42,176 nucleotides of DNA from Saprospiraceae bacterium (GTDB lineage: Bacteria > Bacteroidota > Bacteroidia > Chitinophagales > Saprospiraceae). This document shows, one piece after another, positions 21,807-42,121 of the stretch. Position numbers and translations under genes: made by a program. How positions within the stretch are numbered: position 1 is the stretch's first letter; each line of letters begins with the position of its first letter. The notes below the pieces were generated by a model. The model did not search any database, had not been told where the DNA came from, and was given only the letters and a program-made list of their open reading frames with translations. The DNA is taken from positions 1 through 42,176 of the forward strand of contig JAYTUR010000962.1 of NCBI GenBank assembly GCA_043744475.1. The letters are read 5' to 3'.

Positions 21807-21843
21807 CAAATGTATGAGTGAGATAAGGGTGTGTTTCGGACAA
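21807..21843 (-). promoter_or_regulatory. Late promoter-like module M6 (upstream of the fibre genes)
   Basis: Minus strand TTGTCCGAAACACACCCTTATCTCACTCATACATTTG, with a TACATTTG -7 box. The 11-mer is degenerate here. Confidence 0.5.
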
Positions 21844-22011
21844 TGGAAAGCGGGCTAATTATTTTTCATTTTAAATGGTTCAATTGTTTGGTTTTTAAAC
21901 AATTGCGTCTTTTTACCCCCATGTTTTCAGTCATCGTCTTTAAATTTTTTCTTCCATTCCCTGTCCGCACAAGCAATTGCTTCTAAGAAAATGCGATATA
22001 TGAATAGACCG

Positions 22012-25000
22012 CTATCCTTTTATTGTTTGAATCCGCTTTTGAGCTTCAGTTATCTCTTTTACAATTGCATAGCCAATTGATACTTTTGCATCAATGCCAT
22101 TTTCCAATACTCTTATTAGTTCTGACAACACAGCAACTAATTGCGTATCGCTCGTCACTTGCTTCACCTCTACCGCATCACTACTCCCACCATATCCACC
22201 CTCTTTCCTCTGCTTCACTCCGCCACTACTTACGATATTATCTATCATCCTAACATGCCATGCCACATCAGGTCGTGTTAGCGCAGCGTTCGATACGAAG
22301 TATTCCGGTCCAGCTTCACTTGCAAGTACAAGCGATGGGCTTGATGGTAACATACCAGTGCGCGGTGAACCGATGTACTGCGCATCATACACGCGCCCAT
22401 CATCTTCACCGCGCACATGATATCCACCATCTTTTTTCTGTTTTACCGATGGGGCATCATTGAGTATTTTTTTCGCTGTTGCTATGTTTGCCAATACTAC
22501 CGCCACACCCGTTGCTACCTTGATAGCTAAGTCTATTGGGGTTATTGATGTACTTGCCGCAGCAGCAACGACCCCAGATATAGCTTGAGCAGTATCTACT
22601 GCAATCTTAGCTAATGCAGCAACCTTCTGTAAGGCAGCAGCCTCTGCTGTCTCATTACCTATAATATCACCAAGTGCCGAGAAAGCATTCCCTATTGCAT
22701 TTGCAAGATCTTGATAATGCGCAATAGATTTATTCACAAACTCTCTCTCCGCTTTTAAGGCATCTACATCCGCCTTAATTCTGATAGCCTTCTTTTTATC
22801 AGCTAACGCCTGTTCTAATTTCGCTTTCTTCTCAACATCGTCGCCTAAAATAGCCTTTTCTTTATCTACCTTGATTTGTAGCTCTTGTATGTCAATTTCT
22901 GCCTTAGCCTTTATGTCTGCTTTAGTCTTTTCTAATTCCTCTTTCGAGCCAGGCTTTATGGCAATAACTGGCTTTTCTATATCCCTCAGTATAGCCTCAT
23001 AATCCTGATTTAGTTTAAGCATATCTTGCTTAAACTTCTCGGTATCAGCATATTCTTTAGCCTGGTCTTCTGCTATTTTTTTAACTTTTTCCGCATTAAA
23101 TTTATTTGTTTCGGCTTGTAATTCAGCATTCATCGCCTTTTCAAGGCGTATTCTTGCAGCTGCCCCTTTTGCCACTATTTCAGGAATACCACTTTCTTCT
23201 AATTCCTTTGCCGCATCCAGTTCTTTTTTATAGCTTTCTCGGATAGCATTTAGCCTCTTTTCTTGTTCGCCTAATTTAGTGGCTGTTATCTCATCTTCGT
23301 GTTTTCTTATCTTTTCTTCAAGTTCACGGTTATGCTTATTCAGCATCGCCAATATTTCAAGGTTGGTTTTGTTTTGTAGTTCTTTTAATATTCGAGTCGC
23401 TTCCTTGCGATTTTCGGGGTCTTTCGATAGTAATAGTTCTTTCGCAATCTCTATTTGTTTATCATATTTCTCTTTTATCTTAATCGCTTCAGATTGGTCA
23501 CGTGTGGCATTCATCTGGTCAATATCATTTTGATATTGAACCAACATCTCCTTCAATTTCAATAGCTTATCCTGTTCTTTTTCGAGTTCTTTTTTCGCTT
23601 TATCATCAACCACACCACCTTCAACCTTTGGCTTTCCTTTATCTAAAACCTTATCGGTTTTTTCTGCTGCTGCGGCAATAGCATCAAATTGAGCAGCTAA
23701 TTGTGGGAATGATTTTTTAAGCTCTTCTAAAAGCTGCTGTTGTTTTAATTTTGCTGTATTTGTAACCTTGCTTTCTCGACCTAAAGCCTCCGTATAACTT
23801 TCAGAGGCGATACGCTTTGATTCGATGACTCGTAATAAGTCTCTGGCTTGCCCTGCCTCGCCATCAAATATTTTTGAATAAAAACTACCATTTTGGAATG
23901 TAGCCCTTAGTTTAGCCGCTAATTCTGTAGCACTTGACTTAGAATCATTTAAAACTTGCCGAGTTTTAACAATCGCGTCAACATAACTAAGCTGTGCAAT
24001 AGCCTGTTTATCCACGATGTTTTTCTGCCTCGTTAAACTCGCTTCAACTTCCTTACCTGCATTTATAGCAAGTATTTTAGCCAAATATTGCTGATTCACC
24101 TCCTGTAACCTATCGCGCAACTGTTCATTTGTTACTTTTTCTTTATCAAGTCCTGCCAAAAATTTAGGTTGTATTGCTACAATTTGGTCTATTATAGCTT
24201 TCCTTTTTTGGCTACCGATTTCATATTTAGTAACATTTTCAACAAGTACAGACAGCTCTGTGCGCTCTTTTTCGGTTGCCTTCAACATAGAATCCATGCG
24301 CGGCGTAAGAGAATCAAACCCTTTATTGAATTTATCAAAGAAATCAATCGCAAATCCCAAAACAGGTTTCAGCCCATTGGCAACACTTGAAAATACATTT
24401 TTGCTGAATATTTGTATGTTATCTTTTAATGTCGAAAACAACCCATCTACCGTTTTAGATTGCTTTTCCATCAGATTGAAAAACTTGCCACCTTCTTGTG
24501 ACATCGCAAAAATGGCTTTTTCAACATCCTTAAAACCAATTTTACCAGTTTCAGACATTTTGAATATCTCCGCTTCAGACACCTTAAATTGCGCAGCTAA
24601 AGCGGCAATCAGGGGTACACCTGCTTCCGTAAATTGCTTTAATTCACCACCGGCTAACTTTGTTTTAGTGGCAACCTGACCAAAAGCAAGAACCAATTGT
24701 GGAAGCTTTTCTTTCCCAACACCAGCAGCGATATTGCCCAAAGACTCCATCGTAGGGATAATCTTCTCCGTCTCAATACCCATTGCCAACAATCGCTTGC
24801 TATAATCTATCAATTCCGATTGTTCAAAAGGTGTTTTAGCCGCCAACTCTACAATCTTTTGAATCAGTAAACCCGCTTTTTCAGATGAACCTATCATCGT
24901 TTCAAAAGCGATTTGAGCCTGCTCAAAGTCTGACGCCGCTTTTATACCAGCCATACCAAACTCTAAAACCTTTTGTGCAGCAAAAGCCGCCGCCGCAACA

Positions 25001-25458
25001 CCTGCTATTTGTAAGAGCGAGCCATGCATCGGTTGTAACGACTTGGTAGCATCATCCGTCGTTTTAGACACTTTAGCTATTTCTGCATCTACTTTCTCAA
25101 TCTCCTGCGCAGATGCACCCACCTCTTTCAACTTCGCATTGTACTCCGCCGTACCACGTTTCAAGTTCTCCAACTCCTTCAGCAACTCGCTATGTTTCGT
25201 TTTGAGTTGATTGATTGACCCTTCAACCACAGGCGTAACCGCTTTGAAAGCATTGGCGTACTCCCTCAAAGCATTCTTTTGGTCAACAATGATGGTTTCC
25301 ACTTTCCGAAATCGCTCCGCCTTTTGTGCAAAGTCTTCCGTGCCTAATGTAGCCCTCCGCAGTTCTGCATTCAGGCGAGCTGCCTCCGCGGTGAGTCCTT
25401 TGAGCGTGTTATCAACTTCCTTTCCGTTTATGTATATCGTTGCGGTACTTTGAGCCAT
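22012..25458 (-). CDS. Tail tape measure protein (1148 aa)
   Basis: Long coiled-coil protein with a TMP-core-like segment GGELKQFTEAGVPLIAALAAQFKVSEAEIFKMSETGKIGFKDVEKAI. The track's TTG start at 25569 would span a terminator and promoter; ATG 25456..25458 (MAQSTATIYINGKEV) is preferred. Confidence 0.9.
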   Translation of the reverse strand: MAQSTATIYINGKEVDNTLKGLTAEAARLNAELRRATLGTEDFAQKAERFRKVETIIVDQKNALREYANAFKAVTPVVEGSINQLKTKHSELLKELENLKRGTAEYNAKLKEVGASAQEIEKVDAEIAKVSKTTDDATKSLQPMHGSLLQIAGVAAAAFAAQKVLEFGMAGIKAASDFEQAQIAFETMIGSSEKAGLLIQKIVELAAKTPFEQSELIDYSKRLLAMGIETEKIIPTMESLGNIAAGVGKEKLPQLVLAFGQVATKTKLAGGELKQFTEAGVPLIAALAAQFKVSEAEIFKMSETGKIGFKDVEKAIFAMSQEGGKFFNLMEKQSKTVDGLFSTLKDNIQIFSKNVFSSVANGLKPVLGFAIDFFDKFNKGFDSLTPRMDSMLKATEKERTELSVLVENVTKYEIGSQKRKAIIDQIVAIQPKFLAGLDKEKVTNEQLRDRLQEVNQQYLAKILAINAGKEVEASLTRQKNIVDKQAIAQLSYVDAIVKTRQVLNDSKSSATELAAKLRATFQNGSFYSKIFDGEAGQARDLLRVIESKRIASESYTEALGRESKVTNTAKLKQQQLLEELKKSFPQLAAQFDAIAAAAEKTDKVLDKGKPKVEGGVVDDKAKKELEKEQDKLLKLKEMLVQYQNDIDQMNATRDQSEAIKIKEKYDKQIEIAKELLLSKDPENRKEATRILKELQNKTNLEILAMLNKHNRELEEKIRKHEDEITATKLGEQEKRLNAIRESYKKELDAAKELEESGIPEIVAKGAAARIRLEKAMNAELQAETNKFNAEKVKKIAEDQAKEYADTEKFKQDMLKLNQDYEAILRDIEKPVIAIKPGSKEELEKTKADIKAKAEIDIQELQIKVDKEKAILGDDVEKKAKLEQALADKKKAIRIKADVDALKAEREFVNKSIAHYQDLANAIGNAFSALGDIIGNETAEAAALQKVAALAKIAVDTAQAISGVVAAAASTSITPIDLAIKVATGVAVVLANIATAKKILNDAPSVKQKKDGGYHVRGEDDGRVYDAQYIGSPRTGMLPSSPSLVLASEAGPEYFVSNAALTRPDVAWHVRMIDNIVSSGGVKQRKEGGYGGSSDAVEVKQVTSDTQLVAVLSELIRVLENGIDAKVSIGYAIVKEITEAQKRIQTIKG

Positions 25459-25481
25459 GTCTTTGTGTTTAAATTTTTGCT

Positions 25482-25518
25482 CAAAGTTCGACAGACACCA
25501 CCCCCTCAGTATGGACAT
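25482..25518 (-). promoter_or_regulatory. Late promoter-like module M5 (upstream of tape measure)
   Basis: Minus strand ATGTCCATACTGAGGGGGTGGTGTCTGTCGAACTTTG. Same 36-nt GTCC-to-TTTG frame, but the 11-mer is inverted and shifted 5 nt. Confidence 0.5.
25501..25511 (-). repeat. Dispersed motif TACTGAGGGGG
   Basis: Exact 11-mer inside module M5. Confidence 0.95.
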
Positions 25519-25549
25519 AAAAAAAGCCACACCGATTATCGGTATGGCT
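25519..25549 (-). terminator. Terminator preceding M5
   Basis: AGCCACACCGAT / ATCGGTATGGCT stem (one mismatch), then U7-8 on the minus strand. Confidence 0.7.
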
Positions 25550-25576
25550 TCATATAGTTTCAATGACAAAAATAAG

Positions 25577-25843
25577 TTATGCTACCGAGGGGGTCGCAGA
25601 TAAGGTATCTAATTTTGATAAAAGCCAGTGGTATTGTCTTTGCAGTTGAAAAGGAATGGTGTCACACGTCTCATGGGTTTCGGCTTTCTGCCACGCGTAA
25701 TCCAGAACATGAAAAGTAAAGTCGTCAAAATCTACTTCGGTAAGAAAATCCTCCACCGCCGACAAAATAATCTCTTTTTGGTCAGCATTGAGTTTGGAAA
25801 AATCGTAGCGTTCGCCACACATTAGAAATGGGTTCTTTTTCAT
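25577..25843 (-). CDS. Small hypothetical protein (88 aa) downstream of structured-RNA cassette B
   Basis: ATG ORF ending TPSVA* over a one-mismatch motif copy (TACCGAGGGGG, 25583..25593). Confidence 0.5.
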   Translation of the reverse strand: MKKNPFLMCGERYDFSKLNADQKEIILSAVEDFLTEVDFDDFTFHVLDYAWQKAETHETCDTIPFQLQRQYHWLLSKLDTLSATPSVA

Positions 25844-25888
25844 CTTAGGTTTGCAATTTAGATGATTAAAAATAGGATTTTAGAAATG

Positions 25889-25971
25889 CAAAAAGGCGCG
25901 TATGCCATTCCGCTGCAAACCACCTACAAGTAGGTATGCGTTTCCAAAACGCTCGGAATGACACACGCGCC
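25889..25971 (-). terminator. Intrinsic terminator ending RNA B
   Basis: 18-bp stem 25954..25971 / 25895..25912. Its two non-Watson-Crick positions are G-U in the minus-strand RNA (A-C on the other strand). Followed by U5. Confidence 0.7.
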
Positions 25972-26058
25972 TCCTTTTATAGAAACTGTATGTACTGGAT
26001 AGGCATAAAAAAAGCCTACTTCTTCAAGTAAGCTATTGCCTACTTGTATGTGGTTTGC
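25889..26058 (-). ncRNA. Candidate ~170-nt structured RNA / attenuator leader B
   Basis: The 5' segment 26039..26058 pairs 19/20 with 25915..25934, which lies inside the terminator loop. Confidence 0.45.
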
Positions 26059-26095
26059 ACGACAAAGATAGAAATAATCATGCCACAAAAACAAG
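26059..26095 (-). promoter_or_regulatory. Twin promoter, copy B
   Basis: 37/37 identical to 14421..14457. Similarity (~75%) continues into the upstream terminator. Confidence 0.6.
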
Positions 26096-26108
26096 AGTTT
26101 TTAAAAAT

Positions 26109-26141
26109 AAAAAAAACGCCCCCTCAGTAATGAGGTAGGCG
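26109..26141 (-). terminator. Terminator after the KilA-N gene, containing a dispersed-motif copy
   Basis: Hairpin CGCC-CCCTCA-GTAA-TGAGG-TAGGCG (26117..26141), then U8 on the minus strand (26109..26116). Confidence 0.75.
26119..26129 (-). repeat. Dispersed motif TACTGAGGGGG
   Basis: Exact 11-mer forming an arm of the terminator at 26117..26141. Confidence 0.95.
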
Positions 26142-26196
26142 TTCATGCTTTCAGTAACTTTTTAACCACCGTCTGAATAGACGGTGGTTAAATTTA

Positions 26197-26736
26197 TCAA
26201 TTATCCTCCATAGGCGTTTTGAATATATCCATTTGATTGCGATTGAACTTTGAACGTCCATAAGCTGCCTGTCTTTTTTCAAGTTCCAATTGTTCCAAAA
26301 CATTGTAGCGTGGGTCAGAGGTTCGGAGTTCCTCTCTCAATGCTTCAATTTTAGTTTCCCTTTCTGCCGATTCTTTTAAGTTCTTTTTGAGTTGGTTAAA
26401 TTCACCAAAAATGATTTTGTCAATAGTCGAATACACCCATAGTTCAAAAGCAGGATTGAGCCAAGCAGCAAACTTGAGGGCTAAGACTCGGTGCATCCAA
26501 GTACCTTCTTGTTGTTTAGATGTTACCAAATCTTCTTCAAATTTAATGTTTAAATTAGGAGAATTCTCCTTTTTTAAACACTCTTCAATAAAGGATTTTG
26601 TACTATCAAGTATCAAAAAATCCTTTGGAAATTTACCATAAACCTTCGCCATTTGCGTCGCATTGACTTTAAGGTTTTCATTGTTGAACTCGAATGTAAT
26701 TAAGTTCTCATTGAATTTAAAAGTTACTTCTGTCAT
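26197..26736 (-). CDS. KilA-N domain protein with a C-terminal coiled coil
   Basis: ATQMAKVYGK...EGTWMHRVLALKFAAWLNPAFELWVYSTIDKI. A low-GC island inside the virion module. Confidence 0.8.
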   Translation of the reverse strand: MTEVTFKFNENLITFEFNNENLKVNATQMAKVYGKFPKDFLILDSTKSFIEECLKKENSPNLNIKFEEDLVTSKQQEGTWMHRVLALKFAAWLNPAFELWVYSTIDKIIFGEFNQLKKNLKESAERETKIEALREELRTSDPRYNVLEQLELEKRQAAYGRSKFNRNQMDIFKTPMEDN

Positions 26737-26865
26737 TGTTCTAAAAATTTATATTGTAAATGAAAAGCAATATCGCTTTCAGGCACAAACATATTATAAT
26801 TAATTTTAATAAACAAATTATTTATAATATTTTTAAATAAAATGTTTAAAATATTTTCTGGACAT

Positions 26866-26895
26866 AAAAAAAGCGACCCCTCCGTAAGGCATCGC
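26866..26895 (-). terminator. Weaker terminator-like hairpin after the gp10-like gene
   Basis: GCGACC..GG..TCGC with a one-mismatch motif copy in the loop. U7 on the minus strand, then GTCC. Confidence 0.45.
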
Positions 26896-26921
26896 TTCTA
26901 ACTATCAATTTTCATCAATCA

Positions 26922-27344
26922 TTAATTTCTCGTTGCAAATCTGACAATCGAATCCGCCAAACCCTGCGCCAACAAACCCGCCAACACAGGCAAACGCTCC
27001 GCAATCGTTTCATTGATAAACGGTTGCGCCGACCGATTCCCTTGATTCATCTTGCCCAAACTTGCGGGGTTTGTCCGTTTCTTTTCGCCGTTTTTGTTGT
27101 ACCACGTTGAGCCTTTCGAGCCACCATGCCCCCGACTTGCCCCTTTGTCCACCCATGCCACATACCGTTCAAAATTAAACGAAATGGCGTATGGCTCTTG
27201 CTGTCGCAACTTCACACGCCCCTTGAAGCTGCGTGCGCCTGCGCCTGTCAACTGTGGCATCCGTGCTTTCAGCATCTCCTTTGTGTCGCCCGTCCAATCT
27301 TTCAGCGTTTGGATGGCTTCTTCGAGGGGTGTATTGTCAATCAT
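26922..27344 (-). CDS. HK97 gp10-like tail/head-completion protein (tentative)
   Basis: 140 aa. Pattern ...MPQLTGAGARSFKGRV... and size/position resemble the gp10 family. Judged by eye only. Confidence 0.5.
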   Translation of the reverse strand: MIDNTPLEEAIQTLKDWTGDTKEMLKARMPQLTGAGARSFKGRVKLRQQEPYAISFNFERYVAWVDKGASRGHGGSKGSTWYNKNGEKKRTNPASLGKMNQGNRSAQPFINETIAERLPVLAGLLAQGLADSIVRFATRN

Positions 27345-27361
27345 TTCCTTATATTTATATC

Positions 27362-28459: not shown

Positions 28460-28463
28460 TTTT

Positions 28464-30415: not shown

Positions 30416-32002
30416 TTACCATTTCAACCACAAATCGGTCGTCGGCGCGCCATACTCCAATTGCGGCACCGCTTTTATTTCCAACGCCCACAAATCTTGT
30501 TTCCCATCGTCGAGCGTGAATTTCGTATCTGTAATCCGCACAGGGATATACCCCTCAGTAAGTGAGACCTCAAACACAAAACGACTTGCAACCAAGTTCT
30601 CCAAAGCGCGGCATTCCTCTTGCGACAAATAACCTGTCCGGTATGAAAACGACCTACGCCACTTTTTTTCAGCTTCAAAGGTTTCAATCACATCATCTTT
30701 GTAACGGATTGATTCACGTCGTTCTAATTCAACACCCATCGCCGTCGCGCCCGTCAAACGGACCGATTCAAAAACACCGTATTGGTTCAAAAACATCAAA
30801 TACCGTTCATCTTCTCGATACCGACGGTCTATCGTATATCGCCGCCAACCGCTTACAGGCGTATTGGTTTGGTCTAACAATCGAATTTCCACCGCCGCTG
30901 CATTGTCTGGGTAATCATGCGACTTCAAAGCAGGTATCATCAGCGTCTCATTCGGCGAGGCATAGAGAGAAATTACACTGTTAATTCCTGTCGTGTCCGA
31001 ACCATCGGTATTGAGCCACACTTTCCATTCCACCTTCAGGGATTGAAAAACGTCTGTGTAATTGTACCACACTACAAATTCAGGACTGTTTTGCGCCACA
31101 AGACGGTCATCGGGTAGCGTGTTAAGAAAACACGTATCAATCGTGCGTGTTGCCAACCAATCGGCGCGTAAGGCAACATTGTTTGGAATGCCGCCCGTTA
31201 TCATCTTTTTTATGGCGGTCGTTGTCCAAGCCTGTTGGGTCGTCGGTGCGCCATACTTTTCCGTGTATCGAAAATAGTAACGGCGAATATGGTTCGCTCG
31301 ATGCGCCGGCACTGTCGTACAATTCGGCGGCACGAAACGAATAGCACCGACAAAAGCTGTGAGAATATTCTGGATGTTAATACGTGTCAACCCCGCCACA
31401 TTTGGGATACTTTCACCCGAAAACAGACTTTTGAACATCCCTGAACCATAATCGAGTTCCGAAAACAACTCATACACCGCCCGATAATTCGCAGGCGTGG
31501 TGTCTGGCATCGCCAAAGTGGTTATCGAGACGGTTGCCACCGAAAGGCTTACAACCGCAATCGAAAAAGTCGTTTGTGTGTCAATTGCGGTAAAAGTGAT
31601 GGTTGAGACATTCGTACCTGAATTATAACTGAAGGAAACTTTCAAAAAAGGTGATAGCGCAGGAGAACGCGCCATCCGCGCCGCCAAATCTTGATAATAT
31701 ACTTCATACGTCGGATTAGGTCGAGGCGGAGAAGGGTTAACTTGATACGTTGGAAGTTGTTGTTCCGTCGAGGGCGACGTCACGAAGTCAAACACAATAC
31801 TGTAAGTCGCACCACTTGGCTCTGTTAGGTTAATAGTAATCCTTGCACCCGCATACACATCATCATTTTCGACCAACAATAAACTTTGTTGCATCCCCAC
31901 TGCCGCAAACAACGAGCTGTCATCATGCGTGGAAAGCAATTTGAAATTCGCCACATTTTGAGCAAATATCAACGAAGCGGGTTGTCCTGTTAGTGCAATC
32001 AT
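30416..32002 (-). CDS. Putative virion structural protein (528 aa)
   Basis: ATG ORF with an ATGA overlap to the upstream gene. Confidence 0.6.
   Translation of the reverse strand: MIALTGQPASLIFAQNVANFKLLSTHDDSSLFAAVGMQQSLLLVENDDVYAGARITINLTEPSGATYSIVFDFVTSPSTEQQLPTYQVNPSPPRPNPTYEVYYQDLAARMARSPALSPFLKVSFSYNSGTNVSTITFTAIDTQTTFSIAVVSLSVATVSITTLAMPDTTPANYRAVYELFSELDYGSGMFKSLFSGESIPNVAGLTRINIQNILTAFVGAIRFVPPNCTTVPAHRANHIRRYYFRYTEKYGAPTTQQAWTTTAIKKMITGGIPNNVALRADWLATRTIDTCFLNTLPDDRLVAQNSPEFVVWYNYTDVFQSLKVEWKVWLNTDGSDTTGINSVISLYASPNETLMIPALKSHDYPDNAAAVEIRLLDQTNTPVSGWRRYTIDRRYREDERYLMFLNQYGVFESVRLTGATAMGVELERRESIRYKDDVIETFEAEKKWRRSFSYRTGYLSQEECRALENLVASRFVFEVSLTEGYIPVRITDTKFTLDDGKQDLWALEIKAVPQLEYGAPTTDLWLKW
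30551..30560 (-). repeat. Dispersed motif TACTGAGGGG
   Basis: Exact 10-mer in CDS 30416..32002 (LTEGY). Confidence 0.9.
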
Positions 32003-32556: not shown

Positions 32557-32568
32557 TTTTAAGAATAT

Positions 32569-33075: not shown

Positions 33076-33085
33076 TTTTTTTGCT

Positions 33086-33122
33086 CAAAGTTCCGTTTTT
33101 ACTGAGGGGGTATTTCGGACAC
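33086..33122 (-). promoter_or_regulatory. Late promoter-like module M4
   Basis: Minus strand GTGTCCGAAATACCCCCTCAGTAAAAACGGAACTTTG, followed by the leader AGCAAAAAAA and then ATG. Confidence 0.55.
33100..33110 (+). repeat. Dispersed motif TACTGAGGGGG
   Basis: Exact 11-mer inside module M4. Confidence 0.95.
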
Positions 33123-33151
33123 AAAAAAAGCGACCCCGTTCCAAAGGTCGC
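33123..33151 (-). terminator. Terminator preceding M4
   Basis: GCGACC-ccgttccaaa-GGTCGC, then U7 on the minus strand. Confidence 0.7.
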
Positions 33152-33183
33152 CCCAACAAGCATGAAAAAACTACACTCTTATC

Positions 33184-34200: not shown

Positions 34201-34203
34201 TTT

Positions 34204-35574
34204 TTATTGTGGTGTTAGGTTAGTATTGTCAACAATGCCGCTTTTTTTCTGGTCAGTCGTTGTTTGTCCGAGGTCGTCAATCATCGCCACAATATCCCAA
34301 CCATTGTATTCGAAAACGTGGTTCAATGGCTCAAGCAGTTCCATTTGTTCCATCGTATTGCGCAAAATACCTGAATTGAATTGCACGCGCGCATCTGAAC
34401 CGCTTCCTGCACCCATCCCTTTGCCTGTATCGCCCATCATGGACATTTGAGAAGCGTGATACCCAAAAGCGTTGATAATTTCATTATTTGCACTCAACGA
34501 CGACGGTATCCAATTCCCCTCTTTCATCTTGTCGTCAATCGCGATAAGTTCAATCATGCCCAGCAATTTCCCATTTTCTTCAAAATGGTAGGTCGTAATC
34601 ATCTTGCCGCCGTTTTCAATACCAACCAATGAGTCTTCAATTTTTTGTTCAAACGTATCGGTTATTGTTTTGCGTTTTTCGGCGGTGTAGGCATCCCAAT
34701 CGGGGTGTTTAAATTTAAAATAATCAACACTCACCTTCAGGTGATATTTCGCGCGGACCTGATTACGCGACATCGCCAATATTTCCTTCGGCGTATTTTG
34801 CGCGACATCAAGCCAAGTCTCTTTACTCAACATCGTTATCCAAATCGGGCGCGGATAGTAGGTTGTACCAACATTGACGGATTTGGAATGATAAGCATAA
34901 GAATCGCCTTTTAGCCAATCGTAAAAATCGTCGCGATACCATTTGTGGAGTGGAATGGTTTTAATATCGCTGTCTTGTGGGCTTTCGAGTGACCCAAATT
35001 TGCCGCAAAATTTCAAATATTCAATCTCTTGATTGATGGGACTTTGTTTCGTCACGCGGCTAAACATCGAATCCAAATGAAACAAACGGATAATTTGCGA
35101 ACGGTCAACACTCAAATCAAACTGCGAAAATGTGTTAGCAAACATCATTTTTGCAAACGCTTGTGGATACAGCCATTTTGTGTTTATGATATTTTTTGTC
35201 AAAAAATCGACCGCTTCTTTGTGGTAAGTTTTGATGAAATTGCCTTCATAAAAATCTTTTTTGGACACCAAAGCGACGCCTTTGCCACACATCTCTTGCG
35301 TCATCCGAATCAAAACACGCTTTGCAAACGGCACCGCCGACACGCGTCTGTCTATGAAATGCGGCAAATCGTCACTGAAACCCCATTCCGCCCAACCGCG
35401 CGGATTGGTCGCTTCTGTGCGCGGAAATAGCGGTGCATTGTACTTCATTTCAACCTCATTGAGGGTACGAATGGATAATTCGGGCATAATTTGTAACCGC
35501 CCTGTCTGTCCGTTTTCGCCAATTACGAGGTGAATTGCCGTATCATTCGGCTTTATTTTCGATTCTTGTGTCAT
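34204..35574 (-). CDS. Portal-like protein (456 aa)
   Basis: Size, plus the pattern FEQKIEDSLVGIENGGKMITTY...NNEIINAFGYHASQMSM, which resembles the conserved portal core. Not adjacent to any terminase. Confidence 0.55.
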   Translation of the reverse strand: MTQESKIKPNDTAIHLVIGENGQTGRLQIMPELSIRTLNEVEMKYNAPLFPRTEATNPRGWAEWGFSDDLPHFIDRRVSAVPFAKRVLIRMTQEMCGKGVALVSKKDFYEGNFIKTYHKEAVDFLTKNIINTKWLYPQAFAKMMFANTFSQFDLSVDRSQIIRLFHLDSMFSRVTKQSPINQEIEYLKFCGKFGSLESPQDSDIKTIPLHKWYRDDFYDWLKGDSYAYHSKSVNVGTTYYPRPIWITMLSKETWLDVAQNTPKEILAMSRNQVRAKYHLKVSVDYFKFKHPDWDAYTAEKRKTITDTFEQKIEDSLVGIENGGKMITTYHFEENGKLLGMIELIAIDDKMKEGNWIPSSLSANNEIINAFGYHASQMSMMGDTGKGMGAGSGSDARVQFNSGILRNTMEQMELLEPLNHVFEYNGWDIVAMIDDLGQTTTDQKKSGIVDNTNLTPQ

Positions 35575-35584
35575 TTATGCGGCA

Positions 35585-35956: not shown

Positions 35957-35970
35957 CTTTTATTTTTGCT

Positions 35971-36007
35971 CAAAATTGCGGATTTACGGAGGGGGTGTTT
36001 CGGACAT
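35971..36007 (-). promoter_or_regulatory. Late promoter-like module M3
   Basis: Minus strand ATGTCCGAAACACCCCCTCCGTAAATCCGCAATTTTG, 35/37 identical to M2. Confidence 0.55.
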
Positions 36008-36011
36008 TCAG

Positions 36012-36046
36012 AAAAACAAAAAGGGTACACTTCGCAAAGCGCACCC
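36012..36046 (-). terminator. Terminator preceding M3
   Basis: GGGT..ACCC hairpin (36023..36046), then UUUUUGUUUUU on the minus strand. Confidence 0.55.
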
Positions 36047-36070
36047 TTTTGTATCCCATGAACATTTTAT

Positions 36071-36301: not shown

Positions 36302-36312
36302 GAGTTGTATTT

Positions 36313-37091: not shown

Positions 37092-37140
37092 TTTAATTTC
37101 TGTATTTATTTGCCTTTTGAGGGCGTGAATAATTGTTTTT

Positions 37141-37151
37141 TACTGAGGGGG
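37141..37151 (+). repeat. Dispersed motif TACTGAGGGGG
   Basis: Exact 11-mer directly abutting the stop (37152..37154) of ORF 37152..37439. Confidence 0.95.
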
Positions 37152-37439
37152 TTACTTCGCCTCAACGAGGTACGCGTAACCGACATCAACTAAGTGTTGC
37201 AAAGCTGCTTGCGCCGCTTCTTTGTCAAAACCTTCGAGTTGTTCCGCTTTGACGGTTTCAACATCCACTTTTTCGCCGTTGGCAATAGTAATGAGCGTTT
37301 CGACGTGCAAAGAGCGACCCGATGTGCTGTTGATGTGTGGTGGATGCGATTTCAAAAAGCCAAATTTCTTTGTTTCTGATTTTTCGCCTTTCCGCACTTT
37401 TGCGGAAAATACACCGCTAATTGGTTTAATATCAGCCAT
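37152..37439 (-). CDS. Hypothetical head-module protein (95 aa)
   Basis: ATG ORF downstream of the capsid gene. Its stop abuts a dispersed-motif copy. Confidence 0.6.
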   Translation of the reverse strand: MADIKPISGVFSAKVRKGEKSETKKFGFLKSHPPHINSTSGRSLHVETLITIANGEKVDVETVKAEQLEGFDKEAAQAALQHLVDVGYAYLVEAK

Positions 37440-37440
37440 A

Positions 37441-37546
37441 ATGATTTATGAATTGTGAATTGTGAATTGTAAGCTATGAATTATGAGTTATGAATTATGA
37501 ATTATTTTAAAAAACTCATAACTCATAATTCATAACTCACAACTAA
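37441..37546. repeat. Heptanucleotide-periodic repeat block forming a long hairpin after the capsid gene
   Basis: TGAATTG x3 (37449..37469), then (A/G)TTATGA units, mirrored by TCATAA(C/T) units. Perfect 19-bp stem 37475..37493 / 37516..37534. Confidence 0.85.
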
Positions 37547-38536
37547 TTAAGCTGGCGGTTCGGCGTCTGAAATCCACAGCGTTTGGAAATTTTCAACCCC
37601 CACAAACATTTGGGTTTCACCCAAACCTTTCAGCGTGCGGTCAAATTCTTGCCAACGAATGGTCGGCACGATGTCGCCGCCGTTGTTGCGCAAGCCAAAC
37701 ACCAGGTTATCTTCCATTTCCGAGGCATCCAAAATCAAACGTTGTTTGCCCGACATAGAAGGGCACGCAACGAGCGTTTTGTTGGAAAAAGGAATTTTGA
37801 TACTGCGGTCAAATCCTTCATCTTTTACGTTCGCCACATAGCCGTTTTTGACATACAGGGCATATTGGTACAAGTCAAGGATTTCGGGTGCGCACAAAAC
37901 TTTGCGCGGCACTGCTTTCACGACTTCGGGCAAACTGTCGCAGAACAATTTGATTTTGTCAAAAACATTGCTTGAAGTGATTGTACCAACTGTAACGATG
38001 CGACCCGTCATTTTCGACGCAGTGATGGCGTTGTTAATGATTAACTCTAAGCCGTCAATAGCGGCAATTGCCACGCCTGCTGTGCCTGCTGTTGGGGTCA
38101 CTTTCACACCCTTGTAAATCATCTTTTGCTCAAAGGCTTGACGTGCAACAGGGTAAATGTGATTCGCAACAAGATAATCAGAGAAAAACTTGTAGTCGAA
38201 TACGGATTTGCCCAAAGGCGACATCGAAGGGTCCCAACTTGCCAAAAAAGAGTTTAACTCCGTTGCTGTCCATTGAATGTCGATTTTGACGGGTTGCAAA
38301 ACGTAGGTTTCAGAGGTCAGGGTTTCGGTATTGTTCGGCGTAAAAGCACTTTGATAACCCTGAAACAAATCGCCTGTGAGCGAAATATTGGGTGCAGCAT
38401 ACGCATAATCAACACGAACCGTTTTGAAATGCTTGAGCGTTACGATATCTTGACGCAACACGGCATTCATTCCAGCTTTGTACCGCGTCGCTTGTTGATT
38501 CAGAGCGGCGGCGGTTGAGGCAATTAAATTAGCCAT
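37547..38536 (-). CDS. Major capsid protein (by position and size)
   Basis: 329 aa, immediately after the protease/scaffold gene. Followed by a very strong hairpin. Confidence 0.7.
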   Translation of the reverse strand: MANLIASTAAALNQQATRYKAGMNAVLRQDIVTLKHFKTVRVDYAYAAPNISLTGDLFQGYQSAFTPNNTETLTSETYVLQPVKIDIQWTATELNSFLASWDPSMSPLGKSVFDYKFFSDYLVANHIYPVARQAFEQKMIYKGVKVTPTAGTAGVAIAAIDGLELIINNAITASKMTGRIVTVGTITSSNVFDKIKLFCDSLPEVVKAVPRKVLCAPEILDLYQYALYVKNGYVANVKDEGFDRSIKIPFSNKTLVACPSMSGKQRLILDASEMEDNLVFGLRNNGGDIVPTIRWQEFDRTLKGLGETQMFVGVENFQTLWISDAEPPA

Positions 38537-38583
38537 ATTAAATTTTTAGTTTTTGTGTTTACTTTTTTTGGTAAACAGGTTAT

Positions 38584-39654
38584 TTAAATGTCGTCGCCGC
38601 CAAACTGTTTGCCCGCTTTCAGACTTTCGTTTACCGCGGCGCGTAAATCCACTTTTTGCGTATCGGGGTCATTTGCCGCTTCCGCGCCCAATCCCGTTGC
38701 CGCTGTTGCGTGTGGCGCAACGCCGTGTGTGCTTTTTTTCAAAGCCTCGACTTCGATTTTGAGGGCTTCGTTTTCAGCTTTCACAGGGGCAAGGGCATCT
38801 GTGAGTAATTTTTCAGCATCGGCTACTGTGAGCGGCTGTTTTGCTTTTTCATCGGCAATAATCTTCTCAACATCGCCCAGATTGAGCGTGCCGTCTTGGA
38901 TTGCCGTTTTCAAGGCTTCTGTCGTCATTTCTTCTATTTTATTGAATGAATTATTAGGAATCTCATCAACATTAGGTTGAGTGAGCTTATTGATAAACGA
39001 TTTAAAAAAAGTCATTTTCATAGGTTCAGTAATGGTTGCTGGGTTTTCGACTTCATAGTCTTCATCGCTATTTTCTTGAAAAAGACCCATGTCGAGACAT
39101 TGATTATAGGTAAAATGGTGGTCAGCGTAGTCATAAAACTGTTGGCGAATGTCTTCAATCGTTTTGCCTGTTGCCTCTGCCATCATCTGAATACTCGCCT
39201 CGGCGATTGTATCCAATCGGTCAGCCGTTTCGCGCATATCCTTCGCCGTACCAAAACAACCGATCGAAGGCGCATGAATCATTAAGGATGAATTCTTCGC
39301 CATGTGTCGGTTTGCAATTGGCACACACAACCAAATATCCGCCGCCATCGAAAAAGCCTGACCATCGTTCCAAGTATGGATGTCAAACGGGGAACTCTTA
39401 ATTGCTGTAATCATCGCTAAACCATGAGAAGTGTAACCGCCCGGACTATTGATGCGCAAATGAACCTCTTGAACACCTTGACTTTTGAGCATATCTAAGG
39501 TTTTGACAAACTCAATATCTGTCATATTTTGCTCCTCATTATCGCCGAACATATCAGAATCACCGACAATGCCATACATGAAAATGCTGGCTTCAATGCC
39601 CTCTTTTTGGACATAGAACTTTTGAGTCTCTTGTATTTTCTTGCCTTTTGTCAT
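38584..39654 (-). CDS. ClpP-like (S14) prohead protease fused to a scaffold-like coiled-coil C-terminal region
   Basis: LRINSPGGY, GQAFSMAADIW (Ser) and SSLMIHAPS (His). C-terminal helical region EALKIEVEALKK. The track start at 39669 is TTG; ATG 39652..39654 lies 4 nt after the upstream stop. Confidence 0.85.
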   Translation of the reverse strand: MTKGKKIQETQKFYVQKEGIEASIFMYGIVGDSDMFGDNEEQNMTDIEFVKTLDMLKSQGVQEVHLRINSPGGYTSHGLAMITAIKSSPFDIHTWNDGQAFSMAADIWLCVPIANRHMAKNSSLMIHAPSIGCFGTAKDMRETADRLDTIAEASIQMMAEATGKTIEDIRQQFYDYADHHFTYNQCLDMGLFQENSDEDYEVENPATITEPMKMTFFKSFINKLTQPNVDEIPNNSFNKIEEMTTEALKTAIQDGTLNLGDVEKIIADEKAKQPLTVADAEKLLTDALAPVKAENEALKIEVEALKKSTHGVAPHATAATGLGAEAANDPDTQKVDLRAAVNESLKAGKQFGGDDI

Positions 39655-39658
39655 ATCG

Positions 39659-40135
39659 TTAATATCCAATCGCTTTTTGAATCTGTTTTGCCTTGAATTC
39701 TACTGTGTGATAACCCCGCGCTGAACTCCAAGACGATGAAAACCGCAAAGGAAATTTCACACTTCCGAGCACAAATTTCTGCCCTGTATGGGTTTCGATT
39801 CGGACAATGAATTTTTGCCTTTCCATATTGTCCAGTTGCGCCTGAACGGCGGGCGACTGCATGGGCAAAATGGCTTGTATTTTTTCGTCTGTTGTTTGCC
39901 CTTGATTGGTCAATCCGCTTGTTTCCTCCCAAAATTGTTTGTCGGCATCCAATGCGCGAATCGGCATTTTGTACCAGGCGAAATAAGCATTGAGCGTGAT
40001 GGCGCCGCGTAAACGACCATCTGAAAGCTCGAAAGTTTTGAAGCTCGCAACGCCTTGCACGGGTATGAACTCGATGATGGGCAAGCCAACCAAATTCGGT
40101 TCAGAACAATCGTATAAGGCGGTGAAATCTGTCAT
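39659..40135 (-). CDS. Hypothetical head-module protein (158 aa)
   Basis: The ATG lies 4 nt downstream of the -7-like box of module M2, so the mRNA may be leaderless. Confidence 0.6.
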   Translation of the reverse strand: MTDFTALYDCSEPNLVGLPIIEFIPVQGVASFKTFELSDGRLRGAITLNAYFAWYKMPIRALDADKQFWEETSGLTNQGQTTDEKIQAILPMQSPAVQAQLDNMERQKFIVRIETHTGQKFVLGSVKFPLRFSSSWSSARGYHTVEFKAKQIQKAIGY

Positions 40136-40139
40136 GTCG

Positions 40140-40176
40140 CAAAATTGCGGATTTACTGAGGGGGTGTTTCGGACAA
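40140..40176 (-). promoter_or_regulatory. Late promoter-like module M2 (upstream of the head operon)
   Basis: Minus strand TTGTCCGAAACACCCCCTCAGTAAATCCGCAATTTTG. The ATG follows 4 nt later. Confidence 0.55.
40154..40164 (+). repeat. Dispersed motif TACTGAGGGGG
   Basis: Exact 11-mer inside module M2. Confidence 0.95.
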
Positions 40177-40178
40177 TG

Positions 40179-40203
40179 AAAAAAGCCCCGCTTTTGGCGA
40201 GGC
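40179..40203 (-). terminator. Terminator preceding M2
   Basis: GCCTCGC-caaaa-GCGGGGC (one G-U), then U6 on the minus strand. Confidence 0.65.
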
Positions 40204-40237
40204 TTCAACAAACATTAAGAAAGCAGTTGCATACTAA

Positions 40238-40735
40238 TTATCCTTTTCGCGTCACGAAGCGGGGTAAGTGTCTCTGTTCACGCAAGCGTTGTGAGGCTTT
40301 TTCGAGGGCATCGTGGGTGTATTGCAAATTGAATTCAGCAGCATAATACTCGACAACGGCGGTGGCAGGCGATTCGAGGGCGTCACGTTTTGCGCAACTC
40401 ACCGCGACTATTTGGTCTATCAGCCAATGCCGCAGCGTTTCATTGATGAAAATAATTCGCCGTTGGATGAGATATGAACCGAGCGGAATGTAGATGAACA
40501 AATAATCATCCATGCCCTCAACAGTTTTGGATTCGGGTTCAAAGGGTGGTAAACCAAAATCAAGATTGGAAAGTAACAGCGTTCCGAGGGTCGTTTGTCT
40601 ATCGGCAAAAAACGCCTCTCTCCCCCACCATTTTTGCGACCACTTTTTGAGGTCGCTATTGATGGGCATTTTGACCCTATAAAATTTCGTTTCGTCTGCC
40701 TTTGCAGACCCATTTTGTTTCAAACGATATGTCAT
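40238..40735 (-). CDS. Hypothetical protein (165 aa); candidate regulator by position only
   Basis: ATG ORF with its own TATATTTG box embedded in a large palindrome. Sits between the lysis genes and the head operon. Confidence 0.6.
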   Translation of the reverse strand: MTYRLKQNGSAKADETKFYRVKMPINSDLKKWSQKWWGREAFFADRQTTLGTLLLSNLDFGLPPFEPESKTVEGMDDYLFIYIPLGSYLIQRRIIFINETLRHWLIDQIVAVSCAKRDALESPATAVVEYYAAEFNLQYTHDALEKASQRLREQRHLPRFVTRKG

Positions 40736-40825
40736 GGATAGTGGATTTTACAGAACAAATATATGTTTTTTACGCTTAAAATATATATAAAAGTTTGTTC
40801 TGTAAAATCTTTTGTTTTACTATCC
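40736..40825. promoter_or_regulatory. Nested palindrome filling the holin / 165-aa gene intergenic region
   Basis: Outer arms GGATAGT (40736..40742) / ACTATCC (40819..40825). Inner perfect 16-bp arms 40744..40759 / 40794..40809. A TATATTTG box on the minus strand overlaps the promoter-proximal inner arm (40744..40759). Confidence 0.6.
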
Positions 40826-41329
40826 TTATTTCTCCTCTTTTTTGGTTGGCGTTAGGTCAATGAATTGACTGAATACTTTTTTGAAACCGCCCAGAATATC
40901 CGTTCCGGTCAAGGTGAAAATATTCTCTTTGAAGGACAAAAATTCGGTGAAACAGATGGACGCAGCGACGATTTCCACCAACGGCACATTCGGCATAATA
41001 CCGCCCACATTTGGCTTAATGAACGCCGCATGTAACCAAGCAGCGGCTAAAATACCGAAAAAATAGACGAAAAATTTTTCAATGGTGCGATAAAAACCAC
41101 GACTTGTGATGGCTTCGCCCCGCTTTTTGGCGGCGAGCATACCCGAAATGGCATCCGCCACCGTTAAAAAAGCGGAGAGTAGTATGAAATCTTTGATGGG
41201 CATGAGAAATGATATCGCCCAGCTCATGCCTACGATAAAAACCACTTTGTCGTAGGTCGTTTCCCATAATTTTTCGAGAATGGATATCATGTTATGTTGT
41301 TTGGCTTTGTTTTTGGTTACGTAATCCAT
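40826..41329 (-). CDS. Holin (Phage_holin_4-like membrane protein)
   Basis: Three or four hydrophobic helices and the motif TVADAISGMLAAKKRGEAITSRG. Adjacent to the endolysin. Confidence 0.7.
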   Translation of the reverse strand: MDYVTKNKAKQHNMISILEKLWETTYDKVVFIVGMSWAISFLMPIKDFILLSAFLTVADAISGMLAAKKRGEAITSRGFYRTIEKFFVYFFGILAAAWLHAAFIKPNVGGIMPNVPLVEIVAASICFTEFLSFKENIFTLTGTDILGGFKKVFSQFIDLTPTKKEEK

Positions 41330-41453
41330 TACAGTTGTTTTTTTGCGGCGGGGCGACCCAGATATATCCGCCGTCGTTTGTACCGCCTCCCGTGTTTAAT
41401 TTATTCATTTTTTTTGTTTTTGTTTCAAGATATGTTCAAGTCGTAGCAATGAG

Positions 41454-42020
41454 CTACCCTTTTCTTTTTTCGATTTCTAAACTCGCCCAATTCCGCCAAT
41501 CTTTGCAGCGATTAAGCCACCCTTCAAGAAATTTTTTTTGCGTGGCATCACGCTTGACAATGCTGTTGAGGTATGCGATGCGGGCATCCATAATCCTATC
41601 TATCATTTTTTGTGTACCTATTGTTTTTGTCGCGCTGTTAATTGCATCAATGGAAATGTTGCCAAAAATGTTATCATCTACCACCCGATAGCCCATTTTT
41701 TGCAAAAGTTGTTGCATCTCACGCTTTCCAAATTGCGAATTGAAAGCAAAATCAAAACACACCGCCGCCACAATGTTGTCAATGATGCGATGACAATTGA
41801 TGTAATTGAACGAGTACGTGTAAAAAGCCCGGACCTGTTCAACTGTTAGTTTTTTAAAGCCGTCGGCGGTGGGCTTCATGTTCAGCACTTTTTTGCACAG
41901 TGCGTAGTAATAATCAATTGTAATCCCATCATTCGTCATCCCGCCTTTGTCGGCATCGTCATTCGAGATTCCTTTCTCTTTTTCCCATTTGTAGACTTGT
42001 TGAAAAACAGATTCCAGCAT
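41454..42020 (-). CDS. Endolysin, GH108-like muramidase with a PG_binding_3-like C-terminal domain
   Basis: VYKWEKEKGISNDDADKGGMTNDGIT. The track's TTG start at 42089 would span the predicted promoter; ATG 42018..42020 (MLESVFQQ) is preferred. Confidence 0.8.
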   Translation of the reverse strand: MLESVFQQVYKWEKEKGISNDDADKGGMTNDGITIDYYYALCKKVLNMKPTADGFKKLTVEQVRAFYTYSFNYINCHRIIDNIVAAVCFDFAFNSQFGKREMQQLLQKMGYRVVDDNIFGNISIDAINSATKTIGTQKMIDRIMDARIAYLNSIVKRDATQKKFLEGWLNRCKDWRNWASLEIEKRKG

Positions 42021-42050
42021 TTTGAATAAAATTTTAAAAAATTGTATATG

Positions 42051-42086
42051 CAAAATTACGATGACACCCCTTTTTATTTCGGACAA
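42051..42086 (-). promoter_or_regulatory. Late promoter-like module M1 (upstream of endolysin)
   Basis: Minus strand TTGTCCGAAATAAAAAGGGGTGTCATCGTAATTTTG. TAATTTTG is a TAnnTTTG box, 30 nt from the ATG. Confidence 0.5.
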
Positions 42087-42087
42087 C

Positions 42088-42121
42088 AAAAAAAGCGACC
42101 CTCTCAGTAAAGGGTGGTCGC
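42088..42121 (-). terminator. Terminator preceding M1
   Basis: Hairpin GCGACC..GGTCGC (42095..42121) with a motif variant in the loop. U7 on the minus strand. Confidence 0.65.

Follow-up and report, generated by a model that had tools for sequence, protein, structure and literature searches.

A fixed TGTCC-N23-nAnnTTTG frame upstream of the late operons of a temperate siphovirus, probably of Saprospiraceae: predicted factor-dependent late promoters shared across a phage family

The window analysed here, a stretch of 42,176 bp (contig JAYTUR010000962.1 of assembly GCA_043744475.1, Saprospiraceae bacterium), is the whole contig of a temperate siphovirus whose genome is incomplete. Upstream of its late operons we found six copies (M1 to M6, Table 1) of a module with the fixed frame TGTCC-N23-nAnnTTTG, and the same frame recurs at orthologous places in related phages. 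We propose that these modules are late promoters dependent on a phage factor, and we regard this as fairly probable. The RNA polymerase of Bacteroidota works with an unusual primary sigma factor and a -33/-7 promoter grammar, and to our knowledge almost nothing is known about the timing of gene expression in Bacteroidota phages.

Results

Six modules with a fixed frame precede the late operons

We searched both strands of the window for TGTCC-N23-nAnnTTTG and obtained five exact sites, every one on the minus strand. Dinucleotide-preserving shuffles gave an expectation of 0.15 exact matches, and none of 100 shuffles reached five. M1 is a sixth copy, with an N22 spacer, 1 nt below the other five. 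Since five matches were observed against 0.15 expected, and since they lie on the coding strand, we take the module observation to be real. The pattern search agreed with the original prediction, made from the sequence of the window, that six modules share a fixed frame, with an identical spacing in five of them and 1 nt less in M1.

All six modules are intergenic, and each directly precedes a late operon. The sequences of M2 and M3 are alike except at one of 36 positions, or at two of 37 when the 5' flanking base is counted, which corresponds to the 35/37 identity described originally. A short A-rich leader, TTTGAGCAAAAA (also given as AGCAAAAA), is common to three modules, as had been noted, and these are M3, M4 and M5. 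In M2, the box is separated from the ATG by 4 nt, a distance that was confirmed on the sequence and that places the ATG 40 nt from the T of TGTCC (40175 to 40135). The box of M6 is the canonical TACATTTG. The original prediction had also stated that a canonical -33 TTTG is missing, and indeed no TTTG was found 19-21 nt upstream of any box; the sole TTTG in the vicinity, 28 nt from the box, belongs to the end of the terminator T-tract.

Table 1. Modules, associated terminators and the candidate regulatory gene in the window
Feature	Position	Strand	Description
M1	42051..42085	minus	TGTCCGAAAT-N-TAATTTTG, N22; predicted endolysin/holin promoter; endolysin ATG at 42020
M2	40140..40175	minus	Predicted promoter of the head operon (158 aa, ClpP protease, capsid); ATG at 40135
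M3	35971..36006	minus	Predicted promoter of the 123-aa / portal (456 aa) / adaptor-like (338 aa) operon; leader AGCAAAAATAAAAG
M4	33086..33121	minus	Predicted promoter of the 168/185/528/606-aa operon; leader AGCAAAAAAA
M5	25482..25517	minus	Predicted tape-measure promoter; TGTCCATAC..GAACTTTG; 10-mer inverted; ATG at 25458
M6	21807..21842	minus	Predicted promoter of the genes that follow the tape measure (279, 411, 1280 aa onwards); ATG at 21779
Possible seventh module	39772..39806	minus	N22, weaker; within the 158-aa gene, about 100 nt before that of the protease
Terminator upstream of M1	42088..42125	minus	Hairpin and U7; dG -16.4, z -4.9
Terminator ending the 165-aa-gene unit, before M2	40176..40206	minus	dG -15.7, z -3.6
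Terminator upstream of M3	36007..36052	minus	dG -20.1, z -4.2
Terminator upstream of M4	33122..33154	minus	dG -14.1, z -3.6
Terminator after the KilA-N/88-aa insert, before M5	25518..25551	minus	dG -19.9, z -6.8
Gene of the 165-aa protein	40238..40735	minus	Candidate trans-acting specificity factor; family in all relatives
Promoter of the 165-aa gene	40736..40806	minus	Canonical -7 box TATATTTG at 40756-40763

The modules are tightly joined to terminators. M1 to M5 begin 1-5 nt past the U-tract of hairpins with folding free energies (dG) of -14.1 to -20.1 kcal/mol and z-scores (z) of -3.6 to -6.8, and in each case the hairpin is followed by a U5-U7 tract, as is characteristic of intrinsic terminators. 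M6 has no terminator (dG -0.8). The claim that five of the six modules directly follow a terminator U-tract was thus borne out, with M6 as the exception.

The frame is conserved at orthologous places in related phages

Megablast of the late region against INPHARED revealed no DNA-level relative, scans of IMG/VR with the capsid protein and with the exact module found no close relative, and a capsid-alignment scan of GTDB genomes found none; from the JGI metagenomes only the contig of L005 was returned. The relatives were obtained by protein searches, with the capsid and with the 165-aa protein listed in Table 1, and by contig look-ups. The four closest genomes are the window, L001, L163 and L164. 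In these, TGTCC-N22/23-nAnnTTTG occurs 24 times on the coding strand, with a null expectation of about 0.1 per locus, and once on the opposite strand, in L164. Four more sites were added by L252 and L253/L254. Beyond the modules of the window, five close relatives together have about 25 intergenic copies in corresponding places, nearly all of them on the coding strand.

The original prediction had proposed that related phages be scanned for the motif, and the scan placed modules at orthologous sites, on the coding strand. The 24 sites stand before the endolysin gene, the 158-aa/protease/capsid operon, the portal operon and the 185/528-aa operon; in the relatives, modules also precede three genes that the window lacks and follow insertions, among them the Acb2/Tad1-like gene of L001. 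In all 24 sites TGTCC and AnnTTTG are invariant, and GAAA is nearly so, with a variable spacer, and the consensus of the close relatives can be written as TGTCCGAAA(T/C)ACCCCCTCAGTAttgCCGCAATTTTG. At the first position of the -7 box, the 20 N23 sites of the close relatives have C in 16 cases and T in two. A distance of 4-5 nt from box to ATG was observed in 7/24 sites.

The counterparts of the individual modules could be followed from genome to genome. For M1 they are located at L001 6329, L163 3896 and L164 7441, all with an N23 spacer. The counterparts of M2 (L001 8350, L163 5947, L164 9605, L253 2603 and L255 10502) have all kept the 4-5 nt between box and ATG. M3 corresponds to L001 12499, L163 9869, L252 4604 and position 2475 of the cultured phage Leef_1 (see below), and M4 to L001 15443 and L163 13123, with a module before the 185-aa homologue in distant relatives as well. 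The positional equivalent of M5 is Leef_1 10520, which precedes neck and tape-measure genes.

In the distant relatives L002, L006, L161, L162 and L255 the frame takes the form TGTCC(T)-N23-nAnnTTTG (null about 0.1 per locus), with T-rich sequence 3' of TGTCC and an ATG that often lies 3-4 nt past the box. The capsids of these phages are only about 30% identical and their G+C content ranges from 42% to 54%, and still TGTCC is found 23 nt from a -7-like box.

A position-weight scan of the window returned one further site, the possible seventh module of Table 1. This site encodes the conserved residues FIVRI..KFV; it is kept in L001 and L163 and was lost from L164 through synonymous changes. It is possible that it acts as an internal promoter or that it is a by-product of conserved codons. 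Because the conserved codons explain at least part of the sequence, we rate the site as possible and no higher.

The cassette is present in the cultured Polaribacter phage Leef_1

We came upon Leef_1 (MT732473; L258), a cultured phage of Polaribacter sp. AHE13PA, through a structure search that used the 165-aa protein as query; this phage has been placed in the 'Helgolandviridae' (Leefvirus-like flavophages) (PMC8776804). Leef_1 contains six copies of TGTCCTTTT, all on the plus (coding) strand and all intergenic, with a null expectation of 0.14. They are assigned to positions 469, 1808, 2475, 10520, 30638 and 34590. At two of them, 2475 and 34590, the ATG is exactly 40 nt from the T of TGTCC, as in M2. 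Four copies directly follow one recurring terminator hairpin, and this hairpin (CCACTCTnnATGAGTGG and T7) stands almost unchanged before the boxes in 2440-2475, 30600-30640 and 34555-34590; judging by these repeats, the whole cassette seems to have been duplicated within the Leef_1 genome.

The relatives of the window share with Leef_1 the capsid (E down to 1e-14), the portal (E 1e-29), a Leef48-like protein of 504-549 aa (E 1e-63 to 1e-98) and a 188-aa family. Their gene order also matches that of Leef_1, and the 165-aa family is matched to Leef1_39 by structure alone. On the strength of shared proteins and gene order, we consider the phage in the window to be probably related to the 'Helgolandviridae' of Leef_1. 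Leef_1 has a LuxR protein that came into question for the role of conserved factor; we do not favour it, since no LuxR/GerE domain was found in the proteins of the window.

The module is specific to the phage family

As a host sample, we used 742 kb of loci and 328 upstream regions of the probable host lineage, Saprospiraceae. The module occurs in the loci at chance level, the histogram of TGTCC-to-TTTG spacings is flat, and 0/328 upstream regions carry the module, which rules it out as a class of host promoter. No module was found in unrelated phages of the host lineage that carry the 10-mer described below (L018, L023, L032 and L034), and one module-free unrelated phage shares tail-fibre genes with the window. 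Across the whole of IMG/VR, the contig of L163 was the only one with several copies, and the two-site matches in L169, L172, L187, L216 and L202 were dismissed as chance matches within coding sequence.

Since the module is at chance level in the host loci and absent from the unrelated phages, it is a trait of the phage family rather than of the host, and this specificity points to a phage-encoded reader of TGTCC. Our literature search found nothing relevant on such a phage promoter.

The 10-mer inside the modules is a motif of the probable host lineage

The original description of an 11-mer that occupies M2 to M4, is inverted in M5 and is degenerate in M1 and M6 was confirmed. Its inclusion in the regulatory frame was not, since the motif is spread genome-wide in Saprospiraceae and is absent from the modules of relatives with other hosts. 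In 454 kb of sequence from 72 loci of Saprospiraceae metagenome-assembled genomes (MAGs), a sample biased by the choice of loci holding one copy of the motif, we counted 425 exact copies of CCCCTCAGTA, or about one per kb, in both orientations (231 vs 194). Intergenic copies make up 34%, compared with 19% of bases that are intergenic; two-thirds are in coding DNA, where every stop-free frame is used. The A+T content around the copies oscillates with a 10-bp period over at least three turns on each side. In a scan of GTDB with one genome per species, the matches to CCCCCTCAGTAAAA came overwhelmingly from Saprospiraceae MAGs.

The window itself holds 23 copies of ACCCCCTCAGTAAAA with up to three mismatches (0.85 expected), on both strands and also inside genes. 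Exact copies of CCCCTCAGTA number 20 in the window (for example 364-378, 4557-4571, 4769-4783, 7267-7281, 7510-7524 and 37138-37152), with the host loci being L045-L156. Within a 731-aa open reading frame, TACCCCCTCAGTAAAAACGG, which is the core of M4, occurs as two identical 20-nt copies 243 bp apart (7262-7282 and 7505-7525), with the in-frame reading TPSVKT. The 10-mer is equally dense in L001, L163, L164 and unrelated viral contigs.

In the modules that carry it, the 10-mer always lies at -28 to -19. The modules of L002, L006, L161, L162, L255 and Leef_1, whose genomes lack the motif, are without it, and it is gone from the M2 orthologue of L001, where the frame is intact. Because the motif is genome-wide and can be lost without disturbing the frame, it marks the host lineage and not the promoter frame; its frequency of about one per kb across Saprospiraceae genomes rules out a phage operator. 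The host of the phage is probably a member of the Saprospiraceae. Bound by a host protein, the 10-mer could nevertheless have a modulating effect on the promoters.

Two terminators involve the motif. The stem of the M1 terminator holds a degenerate inverted copy of it, and the M5 terminator is enclosed by an outer stem of about 20 bp formed by opposed copies at 25580-25594 and 25500-25514, so that the region 25490-25605 including this stem reaches dG -47.3 kcal/mol (z -6.9). The pairing of the inverted 10-mer with the copy at 25580-25594 may explain the aberrant spacer of M5.

By analogy, the 10-mer resembles a DNA uptake sequence or the site of a DNA-bending protein. As in the uptake signal sequence (USS) of Haemophilus and the DNA uptake sequence (DUS) of Neisseria, it has a density of about one copy per kb, is found in either orientation both within and outside coding sequence, and is enriched between genes; like them, it is sometimes found within terminator hairpins, has AT-rich phased flanks and is common to the phages of the lineage. 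Unlike in USS and DUS, terminators made of inverted pairs are rare in the host (2/425). The site of a nucleoid-associated or other DNA-bending protein fits the 10-mer equally well. A polar signal of the Chi or KOPS type was not favoured, as the copies within a locus are oriented almost at random (majority-orientation fraction of 0.71 vs about 0.66 expected). No report of an uptake sequence or of such a bending-protein motif in Bacteroidota was found in our literature search.

Predicted promoter organization and competing explanations

The consensus of the Bacteroidota primary sigma factor comprises a -33 TTTG and a -7 TAnnTTTG (PMC7366714, summarising Bayley et al. 2000). Promoters of the canonical form TTTG-N20-23-TAnnTTTG are present in the window at the cI/cro switch (10574-10653, both strands, N21-23) and before the KilA-N gene (26786-26817). 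Among the host upstream regions, TAnnTTTG is found 72 times in sense and 36 times in antisense orientation, and CAnnTTTG, 16 vs 15 times, is not enriched.

The original reading of the modules as terminator-plus-promoter cassettes agrees with their orientation, intergenic position, spacing, orthologous conservation and box-to-ATG distance. In the organization that we propose, the six cassettes, or seven with the possible one, would split the genes for structure and lysis into transcription units of their own. The terminator would close the upstream unit and leave its T-tract at about -42 to -50, in a position like that of an UP element. TGTCC(GAAA), or TGTCCGAAA, would lie at about -40 to -32, in place of the canonical -33 TTTG, and (C/T)AnnTTTG at -12 to -5. 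AnnTTTG would serve as the -7 element for the host primary sigma factor, weakened by C at -12, and transcription would start about 5 nt past the G of the box, giving a leaderless mRNA at M2 or a short A-rich leader elsewhere. The fixed box-to-ATG distance suggests such a start and a leaderless mRNA, which had been predicted for M2 from the outset and which the conserved 4-5 nt now back. Leaderless mRNAs are rare (background from PMC7366714). The host RNA polymerase would fire at these promoters only when a phage-encoded factor recognizes TGTCC and acts on the polymerase at -35 by contact or remodelling, that is, as a class-II-type activator or by sigma appropriation, comparable to the C-dependent late promoters of Mu and the MotA-dependent middle promoters of T4. 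While the frame, its significance, its conservation and its geometry could be read directly from the genomes, we infer from them the promoter activity, the start site, the dependence on a factor and the identity of this factor.

The modules could instead be host-type promoters served by the primary sigma factor alone, with TGTCC as a tolerated or lineage-specific upstream element or a repressor operator and the timing set by repression or read-through. AnnTTTG is intact everywhere, M1 and M6 have the canonical TAnnTTTG, and the T-tract could serve as an UP element. The -33 element, moreover, is undetectable in the host loci and described as weak or absent in some Bacteroidota (a passage of PMC7366714 citing F. 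johnsoniae). However, TGTCC is invariant at 23 (22) nt in about 40 sites, in phages with capsids about 30% identical and hosts with 30-54% G+C, and this invariance together with the fixed spacing suggests a direct, spacing-dependent contact with the transcription machinery and argues against a neutral sequence. In addition, the module is missing from the host upstream regions and host promoters do not use C at -12. A temperate phage must also silence such promoters in lysogens, yet the repeats of the cI/cro region are different sequences. We therefore consider promoters that need the primary sigma factor alone to be unlikely.

Sigma factors of the extracytoplasmic function (ECF) type recognize promoters such as TGAAAC-N16-CGTA of Bacillus subtilis SigW. 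An alternative sigma factor, ECF-like or other and of phage or host origin, could accordingly read TGTCCGAAAC as a -35 and CGCA(A) as a -10 element, leaving TTTG incidental or discriminator-like. GAAAC-N16-CGCA in M2, M3 and several L001 modules resembles the ECF consensus, CCGC at -15 to -12 is moderately conserved (13-16 of 20 sites), and the incomplete window could hide the gene of an alternative sigma factor in the missing segment. The GAAAC-N16-CG(C/G)A described originally for M2 to M4 stood in M2 and M3, but M4 has GAAAT. M1 reads GAAAT too, and the positions of 'AAC' and 'CG' vary further, with GAAAG, GAACA and ATACT elsewhere and TTTT in the distant relatives and Leef_1, which read TGTCCTTTT, whereas in the close relatives TGTCC and TTTG do not vary. 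CGCA as the -10 element would put the start within or before TTTG and leave the fixed 4-nt distance to the ATG unexplained. No Sigma70_r2/r4 domain was found in the scanned proteins of the window or in the called genes of L001, L163, L164 and L255, early regions included, and the host loci have no ECF-like promoter class. An alternative sigma factor thus appears rather doubtful to us. Of the original suggestion of a phage-specific sigma factor or activator, the general idea is still the most likely mechanism, while its ECF-sigma version is not supported by conservation.

The frame could also be a recombination boundary or linker, or an RNA processing or antitermination element, and no promoter at all. 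The cassettes do stand at mosaic joints (the 168-aa gene after M4 is present only in the window and L001, and there are the Acb2/Tad1-like and KilA-N inserts), and in the M5 region a long stem encloses the terminator. On the other hand, elements downstream of efficient terminators would rarely be transcribed, and a role in recombination would explain neither the strict strand bias nor the -7 motif of the host nor the constant 40 nt to the ATG. An Rfam scan of the whole window detected no family; since there is no Rfam overlap and the spacers diverge freely between orthologues without a compensatory pattern, an RNA element is unlikely. Taken together, we give a non-promoter role of the frame very little probability.

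A 165-aa protein as candidate reader of TGTCC

The best candidate for a reader of TGTCC would be the 165-aa protein encoded immediately before M2 (Table 1), expressed from a regulated canonical promoter of its own. Every relative has a homologue of it directly ahead of the module of the head operon, and the family, a very small one, has nine cluster representatives among 1.8 billion proteins. To judge from the sequences, it is the one non-structural-looking protein that is conserved family-wide near the modules. Unlike its neighbours, its gene has a canonical-type promoter and no module. A perfect 14-bp inverted repeat (TTTTACAGAACAAA / TTTGTTCTGTAAAA), unique in the window, brackets this promoter with cores at 40747-40759 and 40794-40806, and in L001 and L163 both arms show compensatory changes (ATAGAAC / GTTCTAT), which suggests a dyad operator.

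Searches of about 45 proteins with Pfam, PHROGs and NCBIfam revealed no sigma domain and no known activator, and the precomputed Pfam hits of the called genes of the relatives include no Sigma70 domain. All that these searches gave was a Cro/C1-type helix-turn-helix domain, KilA-N, P22 AR N-terminal/Bro-N, HNH, integrase, primase, tape-measure protein, ClpP, endolysin and holin. Two AlphaFold models of the 165-aa protein were obtained, with pLDDT values of 70.6 and 77.9. They had no fold match in the Protein Data Bank (PDB) with E below 1, and a PDB sequence profile search was empty as well; the sole structural match is the uncharacterised, syntenic Leef1_39 (BFVD). The proposal that 40238-40735 encodes the regulator is therefore backed by circumstantial evidence, namely conservation, location and its own promoter, but not by a known domain or fold. 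The more specific scenario, in which a 165-aa protein with a new fold reads TGTCC at about -38 and redirects the primary-sigma holoenzyme to the late promoters as a functional counterpart of MotA/AsiA or Mu C, with an abundant host protein on the spacer 10-mer as a possible gate in the branch that infects Saprospiraceae, is offered as tentative and, in this full form, improbable.

Several observations weigh against factor-dependent late promoters as proposed here. The promoter activity and the start site are predictions from geometry. The -33 element is weak or undetectable in the sampled host loci, so that a -7 box and a T-tract might suffice without any factor; M1 and M6 have the canonical T at -12, and in Leef_1 the downstream box is only -7-like (CATCTTGC, TATACTTG). 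With regard to the factor, no DNA-binding or sigma-like domain or fold was detected in the 165-aa protein, which could instead be structural or associated with packaging or lysis, and a regulator or sigma factor could be encoded in the missing part of the genome.

Gene content of the phage and inserted genes

The window carries a tyrosine integrase and a Cro/C1-type repressor, the latter facing a small divergently transcribed gene. The gene assignments of the original prediction held wherever they could be checked: endolysin, holin, ClpP-type head protease, tape measure and a YadA-stalk fibre protein were all supported, the capsid has a weak match to an annotated major capsid protein, and the 456-aa protein is the portal by homology to the annotated portal Leef1_6 of Leef_1.

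Between the early region and the endolysin gene, L001, L163 and L164 have three genes (211-256, 209 and about 549 aa), and the protein of about 549 aa, which is Leef1_48-like, is probably the large terminase. The genome in the window is incomplete and lacks these three genes of its relatives. An independent assembly, L159, breaks at the same base as the window contig. At the end of the early operon (1-330, minus strand), a gene cut by the contig end encodes a Zn-ribbon protein (CPNPEC...CDSC), of which no homologue was found in any relative; it was considered as a possible late regulator.

Inserted genes were observed next to modules. Before M5 there is an insert of a KilA-N gene and an 88-aa gene (25577-26817) with a canonical promoter and terminators of its own, and in L001 the Acb2/Tad1-like anti-defence gene (18173-18511) lies directly before an additional module (18659). 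It appears that late transcription is started anew by the cassettes beyond such inserts and that the cassettes stand at mosaic joints.

Some further features of the window were noted. The proteins encoded after the tape measure (14516-21779; 279, 411, 1280 and 200 aa) have signal-peptide-like N-termini, for example MKKSLIILFFSFVSACLFAQ, and a papain-family peptidase C1 (240 aa) is encoded among them; parts of this region are shared with an unrelated 76-kb viral contig, L032. For tail fibres, these traits are unusual. A 411-bp gap that follows the primase-helicase gene contains dense direct and inverted TTGACCA(A) repeats (1040-1410), and the distant relative L005 has AGTCCAAA repeats at the equivalent place (L005 2053-2453). 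This gap is probably a replication origin with iterons that differ between phages.

Discussion

Our analysis defines a compact and highly conserved class of predicted late promoters, TGTCC-N23-(C/T)AnnTTTG, which extends through a whole phage family, from uncultured phages of Saprospiraceae to the cultured Leef_1, and which would often give rise to leaderless mRNAs. With six predicted promoters, one strong candidate gene and a cultured model, the late switch of these phages is now testable. The cassettes are probably orthogonal and tightly insulated terminator-promoter parts that could be of use in the engineering of Bacteroidota, and the frame provides a signature for the annotation of operons in related metagenomic phages. 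As a by-product, we describe an unreported motif of Saprospiraceae and their phages, similar to an uptake sequence and with about one copy per kb.

The predicted promoters can be compared with three known systems. With canonical promoters of the Bacteroidota primary sigma factor they share the invariant AnnTTTG and a predicted start a few nucleotides downstream; they differ from them in that TGTCC replaces the -33 TTTG and in the C at -12 (16/20), which is not enriched in the host. The middle promoters of T4, which depend on the MotA box and AsiA, similarly keep a -10-type element and replace the -35 element by a phage box at a fixed distance. The box is, however, centred at about -38 in the present case and at -30 in T4, the present phage is temperate and small, and no homologues of MotA or AsiA were found.

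The late promoters of Mu (Plys, PI, PP and Pmom) are activated by C, and those of P2/P4 by Ogr/Delta. In Mu and P2, these promoters have a host-type -10 element, no usable -35 element and a phage-specific site at or upstream of -35, which is served by a small activator. Homologues of C, Mor or Ogr were not detected among the scanned proteins of the window, and the present modules are unlike the Mu and P2 promoters in their TGTCC box, their Bacteroidota -7/-33 grammar and their tight fusion to terminators. They are like the promoters dependent on Mu C and P2 Ogr in occurring as several near-identical copies, at the head of one late operon after another of a temperate phage, with a poor core element and a fixed upstream box. 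The architecture of activator-dependent phage late promoters, with a -10 element of the host type, a defective -35 element and a fixed box before each operon, is thus found in the modules described here.

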